The notes beneath the pieces are model-generated. The model was not told the origin of the DNA and did not search any database. It saw only the letters and a list, made by a program, of their open reading frames with translations. A stretch of DNA of 64,000 bases, from the NCBI GenBank assembly GCA_035628395.1, contig DASPJX010000204.1, positions 5,747 through 69,746 on the forward strand, given 5' to 3'. The DNA is from Burkholderiaceae bacterium (GTDB taxonomy: Bacteria; Pseudomonadota; Gammaproteobacteria; Burkholderiales; Burkholderiaceae_E). Of this stretch, positions 1 through 11,098 are shown piece by piece. Position numbers and translations under genes: made by a program. Numbering within the stretch: the stretch's first letter is position 1; each line of letters opens with the position of its first letter.

Positions 1-1448
1 GGCGTCGCGGCGACCGCGACCTCGAGCACGCCGGGATGCCGGCGCAGCACCGACTCGACCTCGACCGCGGCGATGTTCTCGCCGCTGCGCCGGATCACGT
101 TCTTGCGCCGGTCGACGAAGTGCAGCGCCCCGGCCTCGCCGCGGCGCACGACGTCGCCGGTGCGGAACCAGCCGCCCGCCCAGGCCTGCGCGGTGGCCTC
201 GGCGTCCTTCAGGTACTCGCGGAAGAAGCCGCGGCGCGGCTCCGGGCCGGCGGCGCGCACCAGCAGCTCGCCGGGCGTGCCGTCGGGCACGTCGCGGTCC
301 GCCTCGTCGACGATCCGCAGCTCGAGCTCCGGGCCGGGCACGCCGAAGCAGCTCTGCCCGACGTGGCGCGGCTCGCGGTTGGCGATCACGACCGCGCCCG
401 CGCCGGTCTCGGTCATCGCCCAGGCCTCGAGCAGCGGAAACCCGAAGCGCGCCTCGAAGCTCGCGTGGTGGCGCCGGTCCACGCCCGCGCCGAAGCCGAA
501 CCGCACGCCGTGGTCGCGGTCGTCGGGCGACTCGGGCGCGCCGATCAGCATCGCCGGCATCACGCCGAGGTAGTGGACGATCGTCGCGCGCGACGCGCGC
601 ACCGCGCGCCACCAGCTCGACGGATGGAAGCGGTCCAGCGGCACGACGCAGCCGGCCGACAGCAGCATCGCCATCGTCGAGTACGCCATCGCGTTCATGT
701 GCGTCATCGGCAGCGGCGTGATCAGCCGCTCCTGCCCGAAGCGGATCGCGCAGAGCCCGCCGGCCCGCAGGTACCAGCGCCCGGCGATCAGGTAGTACGC
801 GTTGTCGAGCACGCAGCCCTTGGGCCGGCCGGTGGTGCCCGAGGTGTAGAGCAGCCCGCACTCCGAGTCGGGGCCGGGGTCGCCCGCGCGCGGCGCGGGC
901 CCGGGCGCCGGCGCGAGCGAGGCGAGCCCGCGCGGCGCGGCGCCGCCGGGGCCGGCGTGCGTCTCGTCGTCGAGGCTCGGCACGACGCACACCGTGCAGC
1001 CGGTGCGCGCGGCCGCCGCGCGCAGGTCGTCGACCCGCGCCGGCAGCGCGACCGCCACGCACAGCCCGCTGTGCTCGACGAGGTAGTCGAGCTCGGCGGC
1101 GCGCAGCTCGCCGTTGATCGGCACGACGGAGACGCCGAGCGCGTTCAGCGCGAGCCAGGTGAGGAAGAACGACGGCCGGTTCTCGAGCAGCAGCCCCGCG
1201 CGATGGCCGTGGCCGTAGCCGGCCGCCGCGAAGCGCGCCGCGATCTCGCGGACCGCGACGAGCGCGCGGCCGTAGTCGAGCTCGATCGGCGCGATGCCCG
1301 CGCGGTGCGCGACCTCGGGCAGGATCTGCAGGAACGGGCGTCGCGGATGCTCGGTCGCGATCCGCTCGAACGCGGCGAACACGCTCGCGTCGTCGTCGGG
1401 CACGGGGGGCGACGCGCGGCCGTCGCCGTCCGGGAGGAGCGGGCTCAT
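1..1448 (-). CDS. AMP-dependent aryl/acyl-CoA synthetase (3' end cut by the window edge)
   Basis: Absent from the ORF track because it is open at the edge. My translation of the minus strand from ATG at 1448 gives MSPLLPDGDG..., then LLYTSGTTGRPKG (AMP-binding signature), WAMTETG and GWFRTGD. Its ATG overlaps the stop of the upstream beta-subunit gene (ATGA at 1445-1448). Confidence 0.85.
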   Translation of the reverse strand, partial: MSPLLPDGDGRASPPVPDDDASVFAAFERIATEHPRRPFLQILPEVAHRAGIAPIELDYGRALVAVREIAARFAAAGYGHGHRAGLLLENRPSFFLTWLALNALGVSVVPINGELRAAELDYLVEHSGLCVAVALPARVDDLRAAAARTGCTVCVVPSLDDETHAGPGGAAPRGLASLAPAPGPAPRAGDPGPDSECGLLYTSGTTGRPKGCVLDNAYYLIAGRWYLRAGGLCAIRFGQERLITPLPMTHMNAMAYSTMAMLLSAGCVVPLDRFHPSSWWRAVRASRATIVHYLGVMPAMLIGAPESPDDRDHGVRFGFGAGVDRRHHASFEARFGFPLLEAWAMTETGAGAVVIANREPRHVGQSCFGVPGPELELRIVDEADRDVPDGTPGELLVRAAGPEPRRGFFREYLKDAEATAQAWAGGWFRTGDVVRRGEAGALHFVDRRKNVIRRSGENIAAVEVESVLRRHPGVLEVAVAAT

Positions 1449-1936
1449 GGGAAGAGCTGGATCGAGGGCAGCGCGGCGTCGCAGTTCAGCAGGTCCACCC
1501 GCTTCAGGCGGATCCGCGGCGCGCCGTCGACCGTCGCGATCGTGTGGCGCACGACCGCGGCGAGCACGATCTGCGCCTCGCCCTGCGTCTCGACGTAGAG
1601 CTCGTTCGTGCGCATCGTCCAGGTCCCGGCGGCCTCGTCGGCGGACTCGAGCTCCGGGCGCTGGAGCACGTGCAGGCAGCGCACCGGCGGATGCAGCGAG
1701 AACGAGCGCGGGTTGGAGAAGCGCTCGATCCGCAGCCGCAGCAGCAGCTTGTCCTCGTCCATCAGCGAGGTGTGGTTCTCGCGGTCGGGCTGCCCGGGCG
1801 CGAGCGGCACCCAGTAGACGCCGTCGTCCGCGTACAGCGCGTACCACTCCTCCCAGCGGCGCTCGTCGATCAGCCGCGCCTCGAGGTAGACGAGCTCGGC
1901 GAGGCGCTCGGCCGTCGTCGGTGCGGCGCCCGTCAT
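1445..1936 (-). CDS. Aromatic ring-hydroxylating (Rieske) dioxygenase, beta (small) subunit
   Basis: C-terminal 163 codons of track ORF 1445..3139, starting MTGAAPTTAERLAELVYLEARLIDERRWEEWYALY (NTF2-like beta-subunit pattern). ATGA overlaps with the alpha subunit (1933-1936) and the CoA ligase. Confidence 0.8.
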   Translation of the reverse strand: MTGAAPTTAERLAELVYLEARLIDERRWEEWYALYADDGVYWVPLAPGQPDRENHTSLMDEDKLLLRLRIERFSNPRSFSLHPPVRCLHVLQRPELESADEAAGTWTMRTNELYVETQGEAQIVLAAVVRHTIATVDGAPRIRLKRVDLLNCDAALPSIQLFP

Positions 1937-3282
1937 GCCGGCGTCCCCTCGGTCATGTAGCGCGCCCACGCGCGGAACTGGTTGCGCATCGACACCTCGC
2001 TCGTGCCCTTCGTCGTGCGGTCGGCGGCGCCGATCTCCGCGGGATCGAAGTCGCGGTGCAGGCTGACCCACGGGTTGCCCGAGGCGGCGAGCCCCTGCTG
2101 GATCGACCGGTAGCAGTGCAGGTCGTCGTGGCCGACGACCGACATCGGCGAGTTGATCAGCCGCGAGTACGTCATCGTCCGCTTCAGCAGCGACTCGGGC
2201 GCGCCGACCTGCCGGAAGGTCCACGACTCGATCAGCGTCCGGTCCGCGGCGAGCGGGCGCACGACGCGGATCGCCGAGATCGCGCCCTTGATCGTCAGGC
2301 TCGGGTAGTAGACGGTGTTGTGCCGCACCTCGCCGAGGATCGCGTGCGCGCGCTCCTCGCCGTACGCGGCGACCATCGCGCGCTCGTACTCGGGGATCTG
2401 CGAGTACTTCGAGTGGATCGAGCCGTGCACGCCGGTGTAGCCGTGCCCGTTGTCGAACACCCGCACGCCCATCGAGTCGAAGAAGTCGTAGCTCGACACG
2501 AAGGGCACGAACTGCTCGATCGCCATCGGCTTGGGCTCGTCGGCCGGCCGGCCGGACCACAGCCGCTTGGCGGTGCCGGCCGAGGACTCGTGCGCCACCA
2601 TCGGATGCATGGTGTCGTTCAGGTTCTCGACGAACATCTTCCAGTTGCAGTCGTGCAGGTAGCGCAGCACGCCGCCGGCCACCTCGAGCCGGCCTTCGGG
2701 CGAGCGCTCGACCATGTTGTCGATCGAGGTCAGCGACGCGCCGAAGTACTCGCGAAAGCCCGGCCCGTCGTCCGACAGCCGGCAGAACACGAAGCCCCGG
2801 TAGTTCTCGACGTGGCGCAGCGCGGCCATCCCCCGCGCGTTGGGCGAGCGCTCGAAGCCCGTGCCCTCGTAGCCCTGCTTCAGCGGTACCGCCCGGATCG
2901 CCCCGTCCAGGTCGTACGCCCACGCATGGTACGGACAGCGAAAGAACCGCCCGACGTGGCCCGACGCCTCGCTCACCAGCTTCGCGCCCTTGTGCGCGCA
3001 GCGGTTCTCCAGCACCCGCACCGCGCCGTCCTCGCCGCGCACCATCACCAGCGGCCGCCCGGCGATCTCCACCGCCGCGTAGTCGCCCGGCGCCGGCACC
3101 TGGCTGTCGTGCCCGACGTACACCCAGGTGCGCGACCACAGCCGCTCGCGCTCGAGCTCGTACACCTCGGCGTCGACGTACACGTCGCGGTGCACCGCGT
3201 CCTCGCGCACCAGCGCGCGCAGCGCACCCGGATCGTCGCGGTAGCGGCTCCGCGCGCGCGGAGCCCCGGTCGTCGCGTCCAT
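1933..3282 (-). CDS. Aromatic ring-hydroxylating (Rieske) dioxygenase, alpha (large) subunit
   Basis: Track ORF of 449 aa. Rieske 2Fe-2S motif CAHKG...CPYHAW and mononuclear-iron motif DTMHPMVAH. Confidence 0.9.
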   Translation of the reverse strand: MDATTGAPRARSRYRDDPGALRALVREDAVHRDVYVDAEVYELERERLWSRTWVYVGHDSQVPAPGDYAAVEIAGRPLVMVRGEDGAVRVLENRCAHKGAKLVSEASGHVGRFFRCPYHAWAYDLDGAIRAVPLKQGYEGTGFERSPNARGMAALRHVENYRGFVFCRLSDDGPGFREYFGASLTSIDNMVERSPEGRLEVAGGVLRYLHDCNWKMFVENLNDTMHPMVAHESSAGTAKRLWSGRPADEPKPMAIEQFVPFVSSYDFFDSMGVRVFDNGHGYTGVHGSIHSKYSQIPEYERAMVAAYGEERAHAILGEVRHNTVYYPSLTIKGAISAIRVVRPLAADRTLIESWTFRQVGAPESLLKRTMTYSRLINSPMSVVGHDDLHCYRSIQQGLAASGNPWVSLHRDFDPAEIGAADRTTKGTSEVSMRNQFRAWARYMTEGTPA

Positions 3283-3321: not shown

Positions 3322-5043
3322 TCAGGCGGCGTGCGCGGCGGGCGGCACGGCGCCGCCCCCCTCGAGCCGCGCGAGCGCCGCGCCGAGCGCGACCCCGCCC
3401 TCGTCGGCGAGCGCCGCCTCGCGCAGGCCGCGCAGGCCCGCCGCCGACAGCGCGCCCGGCGGCAGGCGGTCGACCGCCTGCATCAGCCGCTCGAAGTTCG
3501 CCCAGCCGCGCGCGTGCGTGTCCGAGTAGCCGCGCACCAGCGTCTGGCAGCGCGCGATCTCGAGCGCGAGCGCCGGATCGCGACCCGCGACCGCGACGAC
3601 GCGCGCGAGCCAGTCACCGATCCGCGCCGTCTCGACCTGGAAGCGCAGCGACGAGCGGCGGATCCGCCGCAGCGACGCGACCGCGTAGAGCGTCAGGAAG
3701 CCGCGCACCGAGCTCGTCCGCACGACCCGCCCGCCGCCGGCCAGGCGCGTCGCCCAGCCGCGCAGCCGCGGGCCGGCGAGCAGCCGCCGACCCAGCGCGG
3801 CGGGCAGCGTGTCGGCGATCTCCTCGACGCGCGGATGCAGGAACTCCCCGATCTCGAGCAGCTGGCCGTCGGCCAGCCGGACCTCGCCCGCGACCCGCTC
3901 GAAGCGGCTGCGCCGCGTCTTCAGGTCGGCCACGCGCACCGTGTCCTCGTACGACATCCACAGCGCGAGGTGCCGCGCGGTCTCGGCGAGCAGCGCGTGC
4001 GGCGGCTCGCCGGCGATCGCGCCGCCGCCCCGCGCGTCGAGCGCGCGCAGCGGCCCGAGGCGATCGAGGTAGTCGGCCGCGTGCGCCTCGTCCTGCCAGT
4101 CGGCCAGCCGCAGCACGCCCGCGCGCAGCACCTCGTGCGCCTCGGCCGGGAAGTCGGCGACGATCCGCGCCTCGTGCGCGCGCAGCCGCGGCCCGAGCAC
4201 CGTCGGCCGACGGGCCGGGGCGGCCGCGCCCGGTCCGCCGGGCAGCGCCGCGCTGCCCGAGGGGCCGTCGGCGACCGAGGTCGCGCCGGTCGAGACCGCG
4301 TCGCCGGGCGCCGGGAGCGGCGCCGCGGCCGCCTCGCGGGCGGCGTCGAAGCCGGCGGCGAACGCGGCGAGGCTCGCGTCGACGCCGACGCCGCCGCGCC
4401 GGACCGCGGCCTCGAAGGCCTCGCGCGGGAACGGCAGCGCGCCGGTGCCGGCGAGCGCGCCGAACAGCGAGGCGCTGATCACGCTGCGGGCGTCCTCGGC
4501 GAGCCGCGCGAAGTCGGCCGCGACGAACCGGCGCGCCGCGTCGCGGCCGGCCCCCAGCAGCGCCGACGAGTCGACGCGGCCGTCGGCCATCGCGGTCTTC
4601 TCGGTCATCGAATAGACGCGGTTGGTCGAGGCGATCAGCGTGGTGCGGTCGTCGCTGACGAGGCCGCGCTGGATCGCGCGCCCCGCCTCCATCAGCTCCG
4701 AGGCGATCACCACGTCGACCTCGCCGGGCGTCGGCATCAGCGCGAGCACCGGCTCGCGGCCGGCCGCGCGCACCGCCGCCTCGGGGAACAGCTCCACGTA
4801 GTAGATCGTCGCGCCGGTGCGCTGCGCGACGCCGGGCACCGAGGTGGCCTGCGCGACGAAGCCGTTCGACTCGCCGAGGTCGACCACCCAGTCGGCGAGC
4901 ACCCCGCCGCCCTCGCCGCCCATCGCGAGGATCGCGACGCAGATCGCGCGCGGACGCCCCGCGTCCACGACGCCGGCCGTCCCGGCCGTGGCCGCGGGCG
5001 CCGCGGCGTCGCCGCGCGGGCGGGACAGCTCGCGCGCGCTCAT
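3322..5043 (-). CDS. iorB: Indolepyruvate/aryl-2-oxoacid:ferredoxin oxidoreductase, beta subunit (IorB-like)
   Basis: C-terminal 573 codons of track ORF 3322..6711, starting MSARELS at ATG 5043, which overlaps the IorA stop (ATGA 5040-5043). N-terminal AILAMGGEGGGVLADW catalytic-type domain. The upstream part of the track ORF is R/A/G junk antisense to iorA. Confidence 0.8.
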   Translation of the reverse strand: MSARELSRPRGDAAAPAATAGTAGVVDAGRPRAICVAILAMGGEGGGVLADWVVDLGESNGFVAQATSVPGVAQRTGATIYYVELFPEAAVRAAGREPVLALMPTPGEVDVVIASELMEAGRAIQRGLVSDDRTTLIASTNRVYSMTEKTAMADGRVDSSALLGAGRDAARRFVAADFARLAEDARSVISASLFGALAGTGALPFPREAFEAAVRRGGVGVDASLAAFAAGFDAAREAAAAPLPAPGDAVSTGATSVADGPSGSAALPGGPGAAAPARRPTVLGPRLRAHEARIVADFPAEAHEVLRAGVLRLADWQDEAHAADYLDRLGPLRALDARGGGAIAGEPPHALLAETARHLALWMSYEDTVRVADLKTRRSRFERVAGEVRLADGQLLEIGEFLHPRVEEIADTLPAALGRRLLAGPRLRGWATRLAGGGRVVRTSSVRGFLTLYAVASLRRIRRSSLRFQVETARIGDWLARVVAVAGRDPALALEIARCQTLVRGYSDTHARGWANFERLMQAVDRLPPGALSAAGLRGLREAALADEGGVALGAALARLEGGGAVPPAAHAA

Positions 5044-7274
5044 GCCGCGAACCCCTCGAGCCGGCGCTCGATGCGGCGCTGCAGCCAGCCGACGATCCGG
5101 CGGCGCCAGCGGTCGCGACGGCGATCGCCCGCGCTCGGGTTGTGGACGATGCCGGCCCGGTAGAACGACGGGCACAGCACCGCGGCGTGCGACACCTCGC
5201 CGCACAGCCCGCAGCCGACGCAGGAGTCGACGACCGCGGCGATCGGCTCGGTGCGCAGCGGGTCGGGGTTGTCGCGCACCGTCAGCGACGGGCAGCCCGA
5301 CAGCCGGATGCACGAACGATCGCCGGTGCAGGTGTCCGGGTCGACGCCGAAGCGCTCGCGCACCACCCGCTCGCCCGAGGCGATCGCCGCGCGCTGCTTC
5401 GGCTTCTCGCGCCGCTGCCGGTTGAGCATGCACTCGCTCTGCGCGACGACGACCTTCGGGCCCTTCTCGGGCGTGGTCAGCGCCTCGCGCAGCACGTCGC
5501 GCATCCGGGACACCGAGTACGTGTTCGTCACGGTGCGCACCCATTCGACGCCGACGCCGCGGACCGCGCGCTCGATCGGGTTGTTCGTCGAGCGCAGCCC
5601 GTTCTCCGCCTTCGACGACATCACGTCCTGGCCGCCGGTCGCGGCCGAGTAGCCGTTGTCGATCACGAGCAGCACGTTGTCGGTCTTGTTGAACACCGCG
5701 TTGCCCACGCCGCTCGTCAGGCCGTTGTGCCAGAAGCCGCCGTCGCCCATCACGCTGATCGTGCGCTTCGCGGTCTCGTCGGTGTTGAGCGCGGCGGCGC
5801 CCGCCCAGCCCAGGCCGTAGCCCATCGTCGTCGCGCCGATCTCGAACGGCGGCAGGATCGAGAACAGGTTGCAGCCGATGTCGCAGCTGACGTGGTGCCG
5901 CCCCAGCTCGCGCTCGAGCAGCTTCATCGCGGCGAAGATCGGCCGCTCGGGGCAGCCGGTGCAGAACGACGGCGGACGCGCGTGCACGTGCGGCGCCACC
6001 GCGGCCGCCGGCTCGGGGACGCGGCGCGGCGGACGCGCGATGGCCGACGGATCGATCCGCGCGACGACCGGCGCGTCGGTCCTCACCGGCGCGGCGGCGG
6101 CGGCGGGCCGTGCCGCGCGCGGCAGCGGCCGGCCGGCGAGCAGCGCCGGCTCCGTCAGCTCGACGAAGCGCGCGACGCCCGCGGTCACCGCGCCGCCGGT
6201 GTACTCGCCGGCGGCCGGCAGCACGTCCTTGCCGTGGATCGCGGTCTGCAGCCCGGCGCGGCGCAGGATCGTGTTCAGCGCCTGCTCGATGTAGTCGGGC
6301 TGCCCCTCCTCGACGAGCAGCACCGCGCGCTTGTCGGCGCAGAAGGCCGCCACCTCCTCGTCGATCAGCGGATAGGTGACGTTGAGCACGTACAGCGGGA
6401 TGCGGCTGCGGCCGAACGCGTCGGCGAGGCCGAGCGTCTCGAGCGCGCGCACCACGCCGTTGTACATCCCGCCCTGCATCACGATGCCGAGCCCGGACAC
6501 GTCGCCGTCGAAGAACTCGTTCAGCCGGTGCTCGCGCACGAAGCGCACGGCCGCCGGCCAGCGCTTGGTGATCTTCTCCTGCTCGTGCTGGTAGCTCATC
6601 GGCGGCAGCACGATCCGGCCGGTGTCGCGGCGCGGGTTCTCGATCGCGTCCTTCAGCGAGTACGGCGCGCGGCGGTTCGCCTTGGTGCGGAAGCGGCCGT
6701 GCACGTGGCACGCGCGGATCCGCAGCTCGAGCATCACCGGCGTGTTCGAGGCCTCGGACAGCTCGAAGCCCTTCTCGACCATCTCGACGATCTTCGGCAG
6801 GTTCGGGCGCGGGTCGAGCAGCCAGACCTGCGACTTCATCGCGAACGCGTGCGAGCGCTCCTGCATGATCGAGGAGCCCTCGCCGTAGTCCTCGCCGACG
6901 ATCAGCATCGCGCCGCCGGTGACCCCGCCCGAGGCGAGGTTGGCGAGCGCGTCGGACGCGACGTTGGTGCCGACGGTCGACTTGAAGGTGACCGCGCCGC
7001 GCAGCGGCGTGTTCACCGAGGCGGCGAGCGTGGCCGCGGCCGTCGCCTCCGACGCGCTGTGCTCGAAGCGGATGCCGAGCTCCTGCAGGATGTCGTTCGC
7101 GTCGGTCAGCACGTCCATCAGGTGCGAGATCGGCGCGCCCTGGTAGCCGGCCACGTACGACACGCCCGACTGCAGCAGCGCCTTGGTGACCGCGAGGATG
7201 CCCTCGCCCCGGAACTCGTCGCCGTCGCCGAGCCGCAGCGACTGCACTTCCTTCTTGAACGACCTTTCCGCCAC
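5040..7274 (-). CDS. iorA: Indolepyruvate/aryl-2-oxoacid:ferredoxin oxidoreductase, alpha subunit (IorA-like, TPP and 4Fe-4S)
   Basis: Track ORF 5040..7340 (TTG start). Conserved N-terminus AERSFKKEVQSLRLGDGDEFRGEGILAVTKALLQSGVSYVAGYQGAP, TPP motif GDGGFWHNG, and Cys clusters CTGDRSCIRLSGCPS and CVGCGLCGEV. I prefer GTG at 7274, which has GGGAG 6 nt upstream. The TTG at 7340 sits inside the promoter palindrome. Confidence 0.8.
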   Translation of the reverse strand: MAERSFKKEVQSLRLGDGDEFRGEGILAVTKALLQSGVSYVAGYQGAPISHLMDVLTDANDILQELGIRFEHSASEATAAATLAASVNTPLRGAVTFKSTVGTNVASDALANLASGGVTGGAMLIVGEDYGEGSSIMQERSHAFAMKSQVWLLDPRPNLPKIVEMVEKGFELSEASNTPVMLELRIRACHVHGRFRTKANRRAPYSLKDAIENPRRDTGRIVLPPMSYQHEQEKITKRWPAAVRFVREHRLNEFFDGDVSGLGIVMQGGMYNGVVRALETLGLADAFGRSRIPLYVLNVTYPLIDEEVAAFCADKRAVLLVEEGQPDYIEQALNTILRRAGLQTAIHGKDVLPAAGEYTGGAVTAGVARFVELTEPALLAGRPLPRAARPAAAAAPVRTDAPVVARIDPSAIARPPRRVPEPAAAVAPHVHARPPSFCTGCPERPIFAAMKLLERELGRHHVSCDIGCNLFSILPPFEIGATTMGYGLGWAGAAALNTDETAKRTISVMGDGGFWHNGLTSGVGNAVFNKTDNVLLVIDNGYSAATGGQDVMSSKAENGLRSTNNPIERAVRGVGVEWVRTVTNTYSVSRMRDVLREALTTPEKGPKVVVAQSECMLNRQRREKPKQRAAIASGERVVRERFGVDPDTCTGDRSCIRLSGCPSLTVRDNPDPLRTEPIAAVVDSCVGCGLCGEVSHAAVLCPSFYRAGIVHNPSAGDRRRDRWRRRIVGWLQRRIERRLEGFAA

Positions 7275-7314
7275 CGTCCGCTCCCGGCTCCCGCGCCGCC
7301 TGCGCACGGGCGCG

Positions 7315-7341
7315 ATTGCATTAGATGAAAATTCATGCAAT
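7315..7341. promoter_or_regulatory. Perfect palindrome ATTGCAT-N13-ATGCAAT in the divergent iorA / thiolase-like promoter region; candidate operator (possibly for the MarR at 10622)
   Basis: Read directly from the sequence: ATTGCAT at 7315-7321 and ATGCAAT at 7335-7341, in the only AT-rich stretch of this region. It overlaps the predicted promoters TTGCAT-17-AATAGT (plus strand) and TTGACA-17-TCAAAT (minus strand, tgtcaa 7369-7374 and atttga 7346-7351). Confidence 0.35.
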
Positions 7342-7367: not shown

Positions 7368-8561
7368 GTGTCAAGCGTGCCCACCCCCCGAAACCGGATC
7401 GGCTACGACGAGGTCGCGATCGTCGCGCCGGTCACGGTGCCCTACGTGCGCTACTCGATCCGGGCGGCGCACTGGTTCGTCGCGCGGGCGCTGGCGCTGC
7501 TGCTCGAGCGCAGCGGGCTGTCCAAGGACGAGGTCGACGGCGCGTGCGTCTCGAGCTTCACGCTCGCGCCCGACAGCGCGATCGGCCTGATGCAGCACCT
7601 CGGGCTGTCGCCGCGCTGGCTCGACTGGCTGCCGATCGGCGGCGCGAGCGGCGTGATGGCGATGCGCCGCGCCGCGCGGGCGGTGCAGTCGGGCGACGCC
7701 GACGTCGTCGCCTGCGTCGCGGCCGACACCAACCACGTCGACTCGTTCCGGCTCACGCTGTCGAACTTCAGCCAGTTCGCCCGCGACGCGGTGTATCCGT
7801 ACGGCGCGGGCGGCCCGAACGCGAGCTTCGCGTTCCTGACCGACCACTACATGCGCACCTACGGCGCGACCCGCGAGGACTTCGGCAAGCTGTGCGTCGC
7901 GCAGCGCGAGAACGCGCTGCGCAACCCGCTCGCGCTGTTCAGGAAGCCGCTGACCCTGGCCGAGTACCTCGACGCGCGCCCGATCGCCGATCCGCTGCAC
8001 CTGTTCGACTGCGTGATGCCCTGCGCCGGCGCCGACGCGGTGCTCGTGATGCGGCGCGAGCGCGCGCGCGACCTCGGCCTGCCGTACGCGACGCTGCTCG
8101 GCACGATCGAGCGCCACAACGCGTTCCCCGACGATCCGGTGCAGTTCCGGGGCGGCTGGGAGATGGACCGCGACGACCTGTACGCGCAGGCGGGCGTCGG
8201 CCCGGCCGACGTCGACCTGTTCCAGCCCTACGACGACTACCCGGTGATCTCGATGATGCAGATCGAGGACCTGGGGTTCTGCGCGAAGGGCGAGGGGCCG
8301 GCGTTCGTGCGCGAGCACGGCTTCACCTGGCGCGACTCGTTCCCGCTCAACACCTCGGGCGGCCAGCTGTCGGCCGGCCAGGCGGGCTGCGCGGGCGGCT
8401 ACCTGGGGCTCGTCGAGGCGGTGCGCCAGCTGACCGGCGAGGCCGGCGAGCGGCAGGTCGCCGACGCCCGCATCGGGCTGGTCAGCGGCTTCGGGATGAT
8501 CAACTTCGACCGCGGCCTCGCCACCTGCGCCGCGCTGCTCGGACGCGGAGACGCCCGATGA
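7368..8561 (+). CDS. Thiolase-like (SCP-x/Ltp-type) protein lacking canonical thiolase catalytic residues; probable DUF35-dependent retro-aldolase/thiolase-fold enzyme
   Basis: Track ORF of 397 aa with a thiolase fold (NTSGGQLS..., ...DADVVACVAAD...). It has GGASG where thiolases carry CxSG and GQAGCAGG where they carry GHPxGATG. The stop overlaps the next gene's start (ATGA 8558-8561). The exact start (GTG 7368 or 7377) is uncertain. Confidence 0.8.
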   Translation: MSSVPTPRNRIGYDEVAIVAPVTVPYVRYSIRAAHWFVARALALLLERSGLSKDEVDGACVSSFTLAPDSAIGLMQHLGLSPRWLDWLPIGGASGVMAMRRAARAVQSGDADVVACVAADTNHVDSFRLTLSNFSQFARDAVYPYGAGGPNASFAFLTDHYMRTYGATREDFGKLCVAQRENALRNPLALFRKPLTLAEYLDARPIADPLHLFDCVMPCAGADAVLVMRRERARDLGLPYATLLGTIERHNAFPDDPVQFRGGWEMDRDDLYAQAGVGPADVDLFQPYDDYPVISMMQIEDLGFCAKGEGPAFVREHGFTWRDSFPLNTSGGQLSAGQAGCAGGYLGLVEAVRQLTGEAGERQVADARIGLVSGFGMINFDRGLATCAALLGRGDAR

Positions 8562-9802
8562 GCGCGCCGATGACGCGCCCGAAGCGCAAGAACCCGGTGC
8601 TCGCCACGCGCGCGCCGACGCTGCCGCCCGGCGGGCGCAGCCGCGTCGCGCTCGGGCTGACCGCCGCCGCGGCCGAGGGCCGCTTCGCGCTGCAGGCCTG
8701 CGCCGACTGCGGCGCGGTCCAGTACCCGCCGCGCGAGGCCTGCCGCGTCTGCCTGGGCGTGCGGCTGCCCTGGCGCACGCAGGACGGCGCGGGCACGCTG
8801 CTCGCGCAGACCCGGCTGCACCACAGCAACGACCTGTTCTTCCGCGAGCGGCTGCCCTGGCGGCTCGGCATGGTGAAGCTCGCGGTCGGCCCGACGGTCG
8901 TGGCCCACCTGCACGGCGACGTCGGCGCGGCCGGCGAGCGGGTGCGCGTGCGCGCGATGCTCGACCGGGCCGGCCAGGCCGTGCTCGTCGCGCTGCCCTC
9001 CGAGGACACCCCGAACATGAGCGACGACCCGATGCTGCGCGAGATGAGCTGCGACCCGAAGTTCCGCAAGGTGCTGGTCACCGACGCGAAGACCGCGACC
9101 GGACAGGCGGTGGTGAAGGCGCTGGTGGCCGCGGGCGCCGACGTCGTCTGGGCGGGCCACGCCGAGCCCTGGAAGAAGCTGCCGGGCTTCGACGCGCTGG
9201 TCGCGCTGCCGCAGGTGACGCCGGTGCCGCTCGACCCGACCGACTCGCGCTCGGTGGCGGAGCTCGCCGGCGAGATCGGCGGCCGGGTCGACATCGTCGT
9301 CAACACCGCCGAGCACCACCGCGCGCAGGGCATCGGCGGGCGCGTCGCGGTCGAGACCGCGCGCAGCGAGATGGACGTCAACTACTTCGGGCTGCTGCGG
9401 CTCGCGCAGGCCTTCGGGCCGGCGCTGCGCGCGCGCGCGGCCGACGGGCCGACCGGCGCCTGCGCGTGGGTCAACCTGCTGTCGATCTTCGCGCTCGCCA
9501 ACTTCCCCGCGCACGGCACGTTCTCCGCGTCGAAGGCCGCCGCGCTGTCGCTCGCGCAGTGCCTGCGCGCCGAGATGCGCCCGGCGGGCGTGCGCGTGGT
9601 CAACGTGTTCCCGGGCCCGATCGACGACGAGTGGAACCAGCTGCTGCCGCCGCCCAAGCTGCCGCCGGCGGCGCTCGCGAAGGCGGTCGTCGGCGCGCTG
9701 AAGGACGGCACCGAGGACGTCTATCCCGGCGACGTCGCGCAGGAGTGGCTCGAGCGCTGGCGCGACAACCCGAAGGCCCTGGAACGCGAGATCGGCGGCT
9801 GA
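8558..9802 (+). CDS. Fusion protein: N-terminal DUF35 (Zn-ribbon + OB-fold) domain and C-terminal degenerate short-chain dehydrogenase/reductase-like domain
   Basis: In-frame part of track ORF 7544..9802, starting at ATG 8558. Zn-ribbon CADCGAVQYPPREACRVC followed by an OB-fold segment. The SDR-like half is KVLVTDAKTATGQAVVKAL ... HGTFSASKAAALSLAQCLRAEMRPAGVRVVNVFPGPI, with Phe replacing the catalytic Tyr. Confidence 0.75.
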   Translation: MSAPMTRPKRKNPVLATRAPTLPPGGRSRVALGLTAAAAEGRFALQACADCGAVQYPPREACRVCLGVRLPWRTQDGAGTLLAQTRLHHSNDLFFRERLPWRLGMVKLAVGPTVVAHLHGDVGAAGERVRVRAMLDRAGQAVLVALPSEDTPNMSDDPMLREMSCDPKFRKVLVTDAKTATGQAVVKALVAAGADVVWAGHAEPWKKLPGFDALVALPQVTPVPLDPTDSRSVAELAGEIGGRVDIVVNTAEHHRAQGIGGRVAVETARSEMDVNYFGLLRLAQAFGPALRARAADGPTGACAWVNLLSIFALANFPAHGTFSASKAAALSLAQCLRAEMRPAGVRVVNVFPGPIDDEWNQLLPPPKLPPAALAKAVVGALKDGTEDVYPGDVAQEWLERWRDNPKALEREIGG

Positions 9803-9821: not shown

Positions 9822-10619
9822 ATGGACAGGCTGCCCCCTTCCGAGACGCTCGGCGCGCTGGTCGCCGACCTGCTCGCCGGACGCATCCGCGTCGTCGACC
9901 TGACGCAGACCCTCGCCCCCGAGTTCCCGCAGATCGTGCTGCCGCCCGAGATGGGCCAGTGCCTGCCGTTCCGGATCGAGGAGATCTCGCGCTACGACGA
10001 CCGCGGTCCCGGCTGGTACTGGAACAACTTCTCCTGCGGCGAGCACACCGGCACGCACTTCGACGCGCCGATCCACTGGGTCTCGGGCCGCGACCTGCCG
10101 AACAACTCGGTCGACACGCTGCCCGTCGAGCGCACGATCGGCCCGGCCTGCGTGATCGACTGCTCGGCGCAGTCGGCCGCCGACCCCGACTTCCTGCTGA
10201 CCCGGGACTTCGTGCTCGACTGGGAGTCGCGTCACGGCCGGATCCCGCCGCGCGCGTGGGTGCTGATGCGCACCGACTGGAGCAAGCGCACCGATCCGGT
10301 GGACTACCAGAACTACGACGAGACCGGCCAGCACACGCCGGGCCCCGACGCCGAGGTCGCGCGCTTTTTCGTCGAGGAGCGCGACGTCGTGGGCTTCGGC
10401 ACCGAGGCGATCGGCACCGACGCCGGCCAGGGGGTCCACCAGCGTCCGCCCTACCCGTGCCACTACTACATGCACGGCGCGGGGCGCTACGGGCTGCAGT
10501 GCCTGACCAACCTCGACCTGCTGCCGCCCACCGGCGCCGTCGTGATCGCCCCTCCGCTGAAGATCCGCCAGGGCAGCGGCAGTCCGCTGCGCGTGATCGC
10601 GCTGGTGCCGGGAGGCTGA
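9822..10619 (+). CDS. Cyclase-family metal-dependent amidohydrolase (kynurenine formamidase / isatin hydrolase family)
   Basis: Track ORF of 265 aa with the metal-binding signature CGEHTGTHFDAPIHW (HxGTHxDxPxH). Confidence 0.85.
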   Translation: MDRLPPSETLGALVADLLAGRIRVVDLTQTLAPEFPQIVLPPEMGQCLPFRIEEISRYDDRGPGWYWNNFSCGEHTGTHFDAPIHWVSGRDLPNNSVDTLPVERTIGPACVIDCSAQSAADPDFLLTRDFVLDWESRHGRIPPRAWVLMRTDWSKRTDPVDYQNYDETGQHTPGPDAEVARFFVEERDVVGFGTEAIGTDAGQGVHQRPPYPCHYYMHGAGRYGLQCLTNLDLLPPTGAVVIAPPLKIRQGSGSPLRVIALVPGG

Positions 10620-10621
10620 GC

Positions 10622-11098
10622 GTGGCGCGACGCGCGGACGCGCTCGCCCCCGGCGCGGCGGCGAACGACGAACCGCTCGAGGGCTTCATCGCCGGCTACC
10701 TGCCGTACCTGCTCGCCCGCGCGAGCCACCTGATCTCGGGCCAGTTCCACGCGCACCTGGCCGCGGAGAAGGTGCCGGTGATGCAGTGGCGCGTGCTCGC
10801 CGCGCTGTGGGACGCGCCGAAGTCGGCGCGCGAGGTCGCCGACATCATCCTGCAGAAGCAGCCCACGGTCTCCAAGCTGCTCGACCGCATGGAGCGTCAG
10901 GGCCTCGTGCGGCGCGAGACCGACGCCGAGGACCGCCGGCGGATCGTCGTCAGCCTGTCGCCGCGCGGACGCGCGGTGGCCGGGCCGCTGATCGAGGCCG
11001 CCCGCGAGCACGAGCGCGCGGTGCTCGAGCCCTTCGGCTCGGGCAACGCGCGCGCGCTGATCGCGGCGCTGCAGCGGCTGATCGACGGCAACGCCTGA
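10622..11098 (+). CDS. MarR-family transcriptional regulator
   Basis: In-frame part of track ORF 9959..11098. GTG 10622 has GGAGG 6 nt upstream and lies 2 nt after the cyclase stop. Winged-HTH pattern VMQWRVLAALWDAPKSAREVADIILQKQPTVSKLLDRMERQGLVRRETDAEDRRRIVVSLSPRG. Confidence 0.85.
   Translation: MARRADALAPGAAANDEPLEGFIAGYLPYLLARASHLISGQFHAHLAAEKVPVMQWRVLAALWDAPKSAREVADIILQKQPTVSKLLDRMERQGLVRRETDAEDRRRIVVSLSPRGRAVAGPLIEAAREHERAVLEPFGSGNARALIAALQRLIDGNA

Follow-up and report, generated by a model that had tools for sequence, protein, structure and literature searches.

The 64 kb stretch of Burkholderiaceae bacterium contig DASPJX010000204.1 analysed here (the window) carries on its plus strand, at positions 7368–8561, a gene for a thiolase-fold protein without a cysteine at the position of the thiolase nucleophile. 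The gene lies in a rearranged iad locus, for aerobic indole-3-acetic acid degradation, and is the orthologue of iadG. The gene itself is already known genetically; the novelty lies in how its chemistry is interpreted. We propose that the IadG-like protein would act with a DUF35-containing partner encoded by the next gene as a retro-aldolase on a pathway intermediate, rather than as a thiolase. The gene, its partner and the isatin hydrolase gene that follows are given below, with residues of CtSal, the closest solved relative of the IadG-like protein, for comparison.

7368–8561, plus strand: IadG-like Cys-less thiolase-fold protein (P0001, 397 residues), proposed dioxindole-3-acetyl-CoA retro-aldolase
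7641–7643, plus strand: Gly92 codon, where thiolases have their nucleophilic Cys (Gly89 in CtSal); Gly in 81 of 81 orthologues
8229–8240, plus strand: codons of Tyr288-Asp289-Asp290-Tyr291 (YDDY); proposed Tyr base and Asp acid, from alignment and conservation
8364–8381, plus strand: codons of Gln333 to Gln338 (in GGQLSAGQ); Gln338 in place of the GHP His; the two Gln are equivalent to CtSal Gln347 and Gln352
8558–9802, plus strand: IadH-like fusion of DUF35 and a pseudo-SDR (short-chain dehydrogenase/reductase) domain (P0002, 414 residues), from Pfam and a structure model
8663–8953, plus strand: DUF35 module, residues 36–132, zf-ChsH2 zinc ribbon (PF12172, 5.6e-11) and OB fold (PF01796, 7.2e-10); presumed docking partner of IadG
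9065–9793, plus strand: SDR-fold domain, residues 170–412, with degenerate motifs, from Pfam and a Foldseek top match to 5u4s
9822–10619, plus strand: isatin hydrolase (IadI-like, cyclase family), matching isatin hydrolase A (5nna) at E 1.6e-113

The open reading frame at 7368–8561 is a real gene. The GC fraction at its third codon positions (GC3) is 0.98, in a window of 75% GC; an alternative GTG start lies at 7377, and its stop codon overlaps the ATG of the IadH-like gene in the ATGA at 8558–8561. The product matches the Pfam family Thiolase_C_1 (1.9e-35), with Thiolase_N found only below threshold, and all NCBIfam thiolase and lipid-transfer models score far under their curated cutoffs (220 against 421 bits for the best). 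An AlphaFold2 model built from 32 sequences (predicted local distance difference test score 85.2, predicted template modeling (TM) score 0.89) has the thiolase fold, with TM-scores of 0.77–0.83 against thiolase-fold structures. Database entries for the family are labeled 'acetyl-CoA acetyltransferase' or 'thiolase family protein'. The 4.0 Mb metagenome-assembled genome from which the window comes (405 contigs) encodes at least nine more thiolase-like paralogues, 28–33% identical to the IadG-like protein, on contigs C245, C44, C397, C393, C28, C268 and C165.

Thiolases (EC 2.3.1.9 and 2.3.1.16, including the SCP2 type) depend on residues that the IadG-like protein does not have. In a HMMER alignment to a genuine thiolase, that of Pyrococcus furiosus (7yvy), the Cys of the CASG motif falls on Gly92, the HDAF motif on Y288-D-D-Y291 and the His of the GHP motif on Gln338; the equivalent of YDDY is HDCF in SCP2 thiolases, and the thiolase CxG motif reads GFG. 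The original prediction, aligned by eye, had read the nucleophilic Cys as replaced by Gly and the catalytic His by Gln. The two sequence blocks on which it was based are present exactly (residues 88–114 and 328–344), and both substitutions hold in the alignments. Conservation was assessed over 80 IadG orthologues, 67–87% identical and taken from one genome per species, which with the window protein make 81 sequences. Gly91, Gly92, Tyr288, Asp289, Asp290, Tyr291, Gln333 and Gln338 show no variation across this set, which confirms that the Cys and His substitutions are neither due to chance nor peculiar to one sequence. No other Cys/His/Cys triad is apparent. The invariant cysteines Cys116, Cys215, Cys219 and Cys305 sit in group motifs that are found in Cys-less relatives as well, so FDC (residues 213–215) and LGFC are no evidence for thiolase chemistry. 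With Gly92 in place of the nucleophilic Cys, Gln338 in place of the His and the acid/base Cys absent, formation of an acyl-enzyme is impossible. Seven of the 81 orthologues have GGACG at a site that usually reads GGASG (position 94 of P0001); this Cys, two residues past the nucleophile site, might be taken wrongly for a catalytic Cys that has been kept.

Sal and Ltp2 are, to our knowledge, the only two characterised thiolase-fold retro-aldolases, and CtSal, not Ltp2, is the closest relative of the IadG-like protein by both sequence and fold. By sequence, 9myr is the best match in the PDB (E 1.6e-53), with 4u4e second and 6ok1 after it. A Foldseek search with the AlphaFold2 model likewise placed 9myr_A at the top (E 1.2e-32, TM-score 0.83) and 6ok1 second, followed by DUF35-partnered thiolases (BbsB, 7pxp), 7yvy and TbSLP. 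The entry 6ok1 is TcLtp2, the steroid C3 side-chain retro-aldolase of Thermomonospora curvata, in complex with the DUF35 domain of ChsH2, while 9myr shows CtSal, which acts as aldolase on the bile-acid C5 side chain in Comamonas testosteroni, together with Shy's DUF35 domain (PMC12329534). Catalysis by CtSal relies on Tyr302 as base and Cys304 as acid, both in the motif YDCY, with Gly89 at the former nucleophile position; Gln347 and Gln352 support Cys304, and the C304A, C304S and C304H variants are all inactive (PMC12329534). TcLtp2, which converts a tertiary β-hydroxyacyl-CoA into a ketone and an acyl-CoA, has Tyr294 (in YDHF) and Tyr344 as its catalytic residues (PMC12329534).

In the HMMER alignment with CtSal, Gly89, Tyr302, Tyr305, Gln347 and Gln352 correspond to Gly92, Tyr288, Tyr291, Gln333 and Gln338 of the IadG-like protein, and Cys304, Gln161 and Tyr165 correspond to Asp290, Pro150 and Phe154. 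The two proteins have in common the thiolase fold, the Gly at the nucleophile position, the base Tyr in YDxY, both Gln residues and a DUF35 partner that is fused to another enzyme-like domain, and they group in one large clade marked by a Gln in place of the GHP His. They are about 30% identical, however, and the essential Cys304 of CtSal is replaced by an invariant Asp290, such that the Tyr/Cys dyad of Sal is absent. Their substrates would also differ, a secondary steroid alcohol giving an aldehyde in CtSal and a proposed oxindole tertiary alcohol giving a ketone in IadG. The DUF35 ribbon is of the Cys3His type in the partner of CtSal and Cys4 in the IadH-like protein, and the module is C-terminal to a MaoC hydratase in CtShy, whereas it is N-terminal to the SDR-like domain here. 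TcLtp2 shares the Cys-less thiolase fold, a DUF35 partner and the base Tyr (Tyr294), and its reaction is of the very type proposed for IadG, but it is only 28% identical, belongs to a separate clade, has YDHF rather than YDDY, and its acid Tyr344 aligns with Gly340/Cys341, with no Tyr counterpart. Judged from these alignments, the IadG-like protein has the base Tyr and the Gln pair of Sal but neither known acid residue. Cys341, which lies in the second of the two blocks mentioned above, was considered as a stand-in for Tyr344 of Ltp2 and rejected, as the position is Ala in 73 of the 81 orthologues. The original prediction of an Ltp2-type, DUF35-dependent retro-aldolase is thus supported by the nearest structures (9myr and 6ok1) and the adjoining DUF35 module, and it can be refined: Sal is closer than Ltp2, neither dyad is present, and the protein belongs to a separate clade.

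This clade was delineated by a scan of 1.84 billion representative sequences clustered at 50% identity, which found 7,787 relatives. Among the full-length sequences in the best 150 of these, about half carry YDD[Y/F] (33 of the 66 full-length representatives nearest the query), and none of the 66 has a Cys at the nucleophile position. In a maximum-likelihood tree of 67 sequences, consisting of full-length representatives, six IadG orthologues, CtSal, TcLtp2, 4u4e and 7yvy, all 33 YDD sequences form one clade with a Shimodaira-Hasegawa-like approximate likelihood ratio (SH-aLRT) support of 100. It is nested in the larger Gln-at-GHP clade (support 99), together with CtSal and other YDC[Y/F] lineages, and is a sister group of Sal-like lineages, set apart from the CtSal branch; TcLtp2 lies elsewhere in the tree. 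The YDD motif is held throughout this deep clade, down to about 34% identity, and two distant members (36% identical) are each followed directly by a stand-alone DUF35 gene. The invariant YDDY motif, which is neither the YDCY of Sal nor the YDHF plus Tyr344 of Ltp2, therefore appears to define a new and distinct variant of the thiolase-fold aldolases.

A gene for a zinc-ribbon/OB-fold protein adjoins the IadG-like gene in the window, a feature shared with the DUF35-dependent thiolase-fold complexes (Ltp2-ChsH2, Sal-Shy, BbsAB and archaeal thiolase/HMGCS). Of the 80 orthologous loci that were fetched, 72 have a gene for a DUF35 partner, the remainder being mostly on short contigs. The four ribbon cysteines (Cys48, Cys51, Cys62 and Cys65) are invariant in 73 of 73 partner sequences. 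In the structure model of the partner, the Rossmann-type domain is closest to 5u4s, and the DUF35 part is less confident. The original prediction had described this neighbour as a degenerate SDR; it is more precisely a DUF35-fused SDR with degenerate motifs, where TDAKTATG stands for TGxxxGxG, NTAE for NNAG and FSASK for YxxxK (Phe322). Across the 73 orthologues the glycine motif reads T-D-G/A-K in 69, the position of the catalytic Tyr is occupied by Phe (33), Trp (30) or Tyr (10), and that of the Lys is variable (Lys, Gln, Met or other). The SDR domain is therefore probably not a dehydrogenase, as far as its motifs indicate. It could have explained a 'reductive' step as an isatin reductase, but we consider this unlikely, given the Phe or Trp at the Tyr position in most orthologues, the variable Lys and the altered glycine motif. 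The structure 5u4s, from Burkholderia cenocepacia and in complex with NADP, has a Leu at the canonical Tyr position (SLSASK). As the nearest solved SDR also lacks this Tyr, the lineage that became fused to DUF35 may have been without it before the fusion, and as 5u4s binds NADP without it, binding of NAD(P) by the IadH-like domain is possible.

A different fusion is found in the iad loci of Alcaligenes parafaecalis, A. phenolicus and A. pakistanensis (L041:11179-12400, L050 and L056), where DUF35 is fused to a canonical SDR instead of a degenerate one. This SDR has intact motifs (TGGSTGIG, HNAG and YAATK) and is 59% identical to Roseibium IadJ, making the protein a DUF35-IadJ fusion. The arrangement recalls the steroid systems, in which DUF35 forms a fusion with the enzyme that acts one step earlier.

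The other features of the locus lie downstream of the isatin hydrolase gene or on the opposite arm:

10628–11098, plus strand: MarR-family regulator (IadR-like; Pfam MarR_2, 2.1e-15), start codon not fixed
7315–7341, no strand assigned: ATTGCAT-N13-ATGCAAT, a perfect inverted repeat that lies between the arms in their divergent promoter region, read from the sequence; candidate MarR operator
5040–7340, minus strand: IorA-like alpha subunit of a thiamine pyrophosphate (TPP)/4Fe-4S 2-oxoacid:ferredoxin oxidoreductase (IadA-like), from synteny
3322–5043, minus strand: IorB-like subunit (POR and DUF6537; IadB-like), from synteny
1933–3282, minus strand: Rieske oxygenase alpha subunit (IadD-like), from synteny
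1445–1936, minus strand: Rieske oxygenase beta subunit (IadE-like), from synteny
3–1442, minus strand: IadF-like AMP-forming acyl-CoA ligase, truncated at the window edge, from synteny

The IorA-like gene probably starts further in than the TTG at 7340 that opens the longest reading frame, because the inverted repeat overlaps this codon. The locus reaches past the window, since an intact IadJ-like SDR gene (product 53% identical to Roseibium IadJ) follows the ligase gene on the minus arm of the same contig, at contig positions 4727–5467, about 300 bases to the left of the window. Within its 64 kb, the window yielded no IadC-type PDR/VanB reductase.

Across 80 loci of other species, the genes are ordered IorA, IorB, (reductase), Rieske alpha, Rieske beta, ligase, thiolase-like protein, DUF35/SDR, cyclase and SDR; this colinear order is seen in Achromobacter, Bordetella, Pusillimonas, Aromatoleum, Bradyrhizobium and on Roseibium plasmids. 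It is the published order of iadA-J, a nomenclature that was defined in Achromobacter, adopted for Variovorax and tabulated for V. boronicumulans (PMC9613470, PMC12633357, PMC12852158). Therefore, the gene at 7368–8561 is iadG and that of its partner is iadH. The window gene likewise has the ligase, DUF35/SDR and cyclase genes around it and Rieske oxygenase, IorAB and MarR genes in the same locus, and the Achromobacter IadG orthologues, which occupy the same position among the same neighbours, are 70–73% identical to the window protein. The window locus differs from these iad loci in that its genes are divided between two divergent arms, A-B-D-E-F-J and G-H-I-R. The product of the gene after iadH contains the motifs HTGTHFDAPIH, GLQC and WYW, corresponding to the signature motifs HxGTHxDxPxH, GLQC and WxW of a family with measured isatin hydrolase activity (PMC6117287).

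The genetics of the pathway bear directly on the substrate of IadG. In V. paradoxus CL014, deletion of iadF, iadG, iadH or iadI leads to the build-up of C10H9NO4, dioxindole-3-acetate; IadF was assigned as a CoA ligase, IadG as a ketothiolase and IadH as an alcohol dehydrogenase, with the side chain being removed 'reductively' (PMC12633357). Because dioxindole-3-acetate accumulates in these deletion strains and IadF is a CoA ligase, IadG and IadH would act on the CoA ester of a tertiary alcohol. The hydroxyl of such a compound is on a fully substituted carbon and cannot be oxidised to give a 3-oxoacyl-CoA, so that oxidation of dioxindole-3-acetyl-CoA followed by thiolysis, the dehydrogenase-plus-thiolase route, is impossible. 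Retro-aldol cleavage would instead yield isatin directly, along with acetyl-CoA, and isatin is the substrate of the enzyme encoded next. Since that enzyme is an isatin hydrolase A with its signature motifs, isatin must arise at this locus. The suggestion in the original prediction that a tertiary β-hydroxyacyl-CoA would suit the protein is thus in keeping with the iad context, which singles out dioxindole-3-acetyl-CoA as the likely compound.

We estimate a probability of about 0.7 that IadG, with its DUF35 partner, carries out a retro-aldol cleavage of dioxindole-3-acetyl-CoA that yields isatin and acetyl-CoA. In the mechanism that we infer, the IadF-like ligase would first make dioxindole-3-acetyl-CoA (3-hydroxy-2-oxindole-3-acetyl-CoA), and IadG would dock on the N-terminal zinc-ribbon/OB module of the IadH-like protein, whose gene is translationally coupled to iadG, to form the active complex. 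Tyr288 of the YDDY motif would deprotonate the tertiary C3 hydroxyl, in the manner of Tyr302 in CtSal and Tyr294 in TcLtp2, and the resulting acetyl-CoA enolate would take up a proton from Asp290, the counterpart of CtSal Cys304. The isatin released would then be opened to isatinate by the isatin hydrolase. A literature search, incomplete in its coverage, found no paper that describes IadG as an aldolase, its missing Cys or the DUF35 domain of IadH.

Several points weigh against this proposal. The choice of Asp290 as acid catalyst is a guess from its position and invariance, as it replaces a Cys that is essential in CtSal, and neither the oxyanion-hole Gln161 of CtSal nor its Tyr165 is conserved (Pro150 and Phe154, respectively). 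In the Variovorax study, the compound that builds up after IadFGH is C8H7NO2, the formula of dioxindole, not isatin (C8H5NO2), and the step was read as reductive (PMC12633357). For the retro-aldol proposal to hold, isatin would have to undergo adventitious reduction in the absence of IadI, which could account for the C8H7NO2 peak. In addition, a search with the Xenophilus orthologue gave no IadG labeled as Variovorax (the genera named were Pseudorhodoferax, Delftia, Ottowia, Hydrogenophaga, Ramlibacter and Massilia), and Variovorax plasmid matches in PLSDB, at less than 60% identity, are not among the matches listed. The orthology to the genetically studied iadG of Variovorax is accordingly argued from synteny and from the Achromobacter and Roseibium loci.

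A rival reading is an enzyme of the same type acting on another CoA ester, either that of 2,3-dihydroxyindoline-3-acetate (C10H11NO4), which would give C8H7NO2 directly, or another hydroxyacyl-CoA derived from an aryl acetate. Such a substrate would account for the C8H7NO2 found in place of isatin after IadFGH (PMC12633357), and it could be accommodated by a locus that is split into two arms and has no IadC-type reductase within 64 kb, as well as by the presence of related YDD-clade proteins in other ligase-containing clusters. However, the iadF, iadG and iadH deletions accumulate C10H9NO4, which is the product of IadJ, and not C10H11NO4 (PMC12633357). An IadJ-like SDR is encoded directly after the ligase, and the downstream gene is a close orthologue of those for enzymes with measured isatin hydrolase activity. 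We therefore regard a different ester as unlikely.

It is less probable still that IadG is an inert thiolase-shaped scaffold, with cleavage being the work of another component, such as the SDR-like domain or the protein of the isatin hydrolase family, or occurring spontaneously after formation of the CoA ester. None of the three canonical thiolase residues remains, the acid Cys304 of CtSal is missing too, and the partner is itself partly degenerate, as might be expected of such a scaffold. Yet the CtSal-type active-site residues Gly92, Tyr288, Gln333 and Gln338, along with Asp290, are invariant, and the retention of YDD to about 34% identity fits selection on catalysis. Deletion of iadG halts the pathway at dioxindole-3-acetate (PMC12633357), and the SDR domain is a poor candidate for the cutting enzyme, since most orthologues no longer have the SDR catalytic Tyr. 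A genuine thiolase or acyltransferase (an acetyl-CoA acetyltransferase or ketothiolase) with a non-canonical nucleophile elsewhere is highly improbable: the database names, the ketothiolase label in the literature and the invariant Cys215 and Cys219 speak for it, but the NCBIfam scores, the Gly at the nucleophile position in every orthologue, the absence of the His and the acid/base Cys and of any nucleophile-position Cys among the 66 relatives, and a tertiary hydroxyl that precludes a 3-oxoacyl-CoA all argue against it, as does the fact that DUF35-partnered acyltransferases of the PhlC type retain their Cys (the C88S mutant of one is in the PDB).

Beyond IadG itself, it is quite possible, although we put this forward tentatively, that the YDD[Y/F] proteins constitute a third mechanistic class of DUF35-dependent thiolase-fold retro-aldolases, with a Tyr/Asp dyad, beside Sal (Tyr/Cys) and Ltp2 (Tyr/Tyr). 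The clade is large and of single origin; on this reading it would widely provide the cleaving component of 'CoA ligase plus aldolase' modules, which clip acetate-type side chains from hydroxylated rings, and IadG would be its first member with a nameable substrate. One distant YDDY member (38% identical; L100:4272-7335) is preceded by a gene for an AMP-forming ligase, is followed by a 100-residue open reading frame without a Pfam match and a gene for a TctC binding protein, and has a VanA-type Rieske oxygenase gene nearby; this cluster may be another 'activate and clip' module.

A similar module is present in the ibuprofen pathway on plasmid pIBU218 (NZ_CP059320), where Rieske alpha and beta subunits and a ligase accompany the thiolase-like IpfD and the DUF35 protein IpfE. 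The proposed job of IpfD resembles that of IadG, namely removal of the acyl-CoA side chain borne by a hydroxylated ring carbon; the two are about 34% identical, and IpfE is a stand-alone DUF35 protein, unlike the fused IadH-like protein. IpfD (63639–64826, minus strand) has been described as a thiolase, but the nucleophilic Cys is absent (EGS), and it has YDAF together with an Ltp2-like Tyr (GFYLQG), which suggests that it is likewise a retro-aldolase working with IpfE. The same residues led us to reject IpfD as a member of the YDD clade.

Root bacteria, Variovorax among them, use the iad pathway to remove excess auxin, and the pathway is being engineered into commensals to promote plant growth (PMC12633357). 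Removal of the side chain is its least understood step, drawn at present as a 'reductive' cleavage in which a CoA ligase works with a ketothiolase and an alcohol dehydrogenase. The evidence gathered here supports the view that the chemistry of iadG has been mis-described in the literature, and the sequences point to a cofactor-free retro-aldol step that would give isatin directly and for which the DUF35 partner would be needed. If correct, this would change the genes to be co-expressed in engineered strains, and the intermediates to look for would be isatin and acetyl-CoA, with dioxindole as a shunt product. It would also call for the renaming of thousands of database entries now labeled 'acetyl-CoA acetyltransferase', and would add a third active-site solution (Tyr/Asp) to the few thiolase-fold aldolases, which are of interest as biocatalysts acting on C–C bonds.

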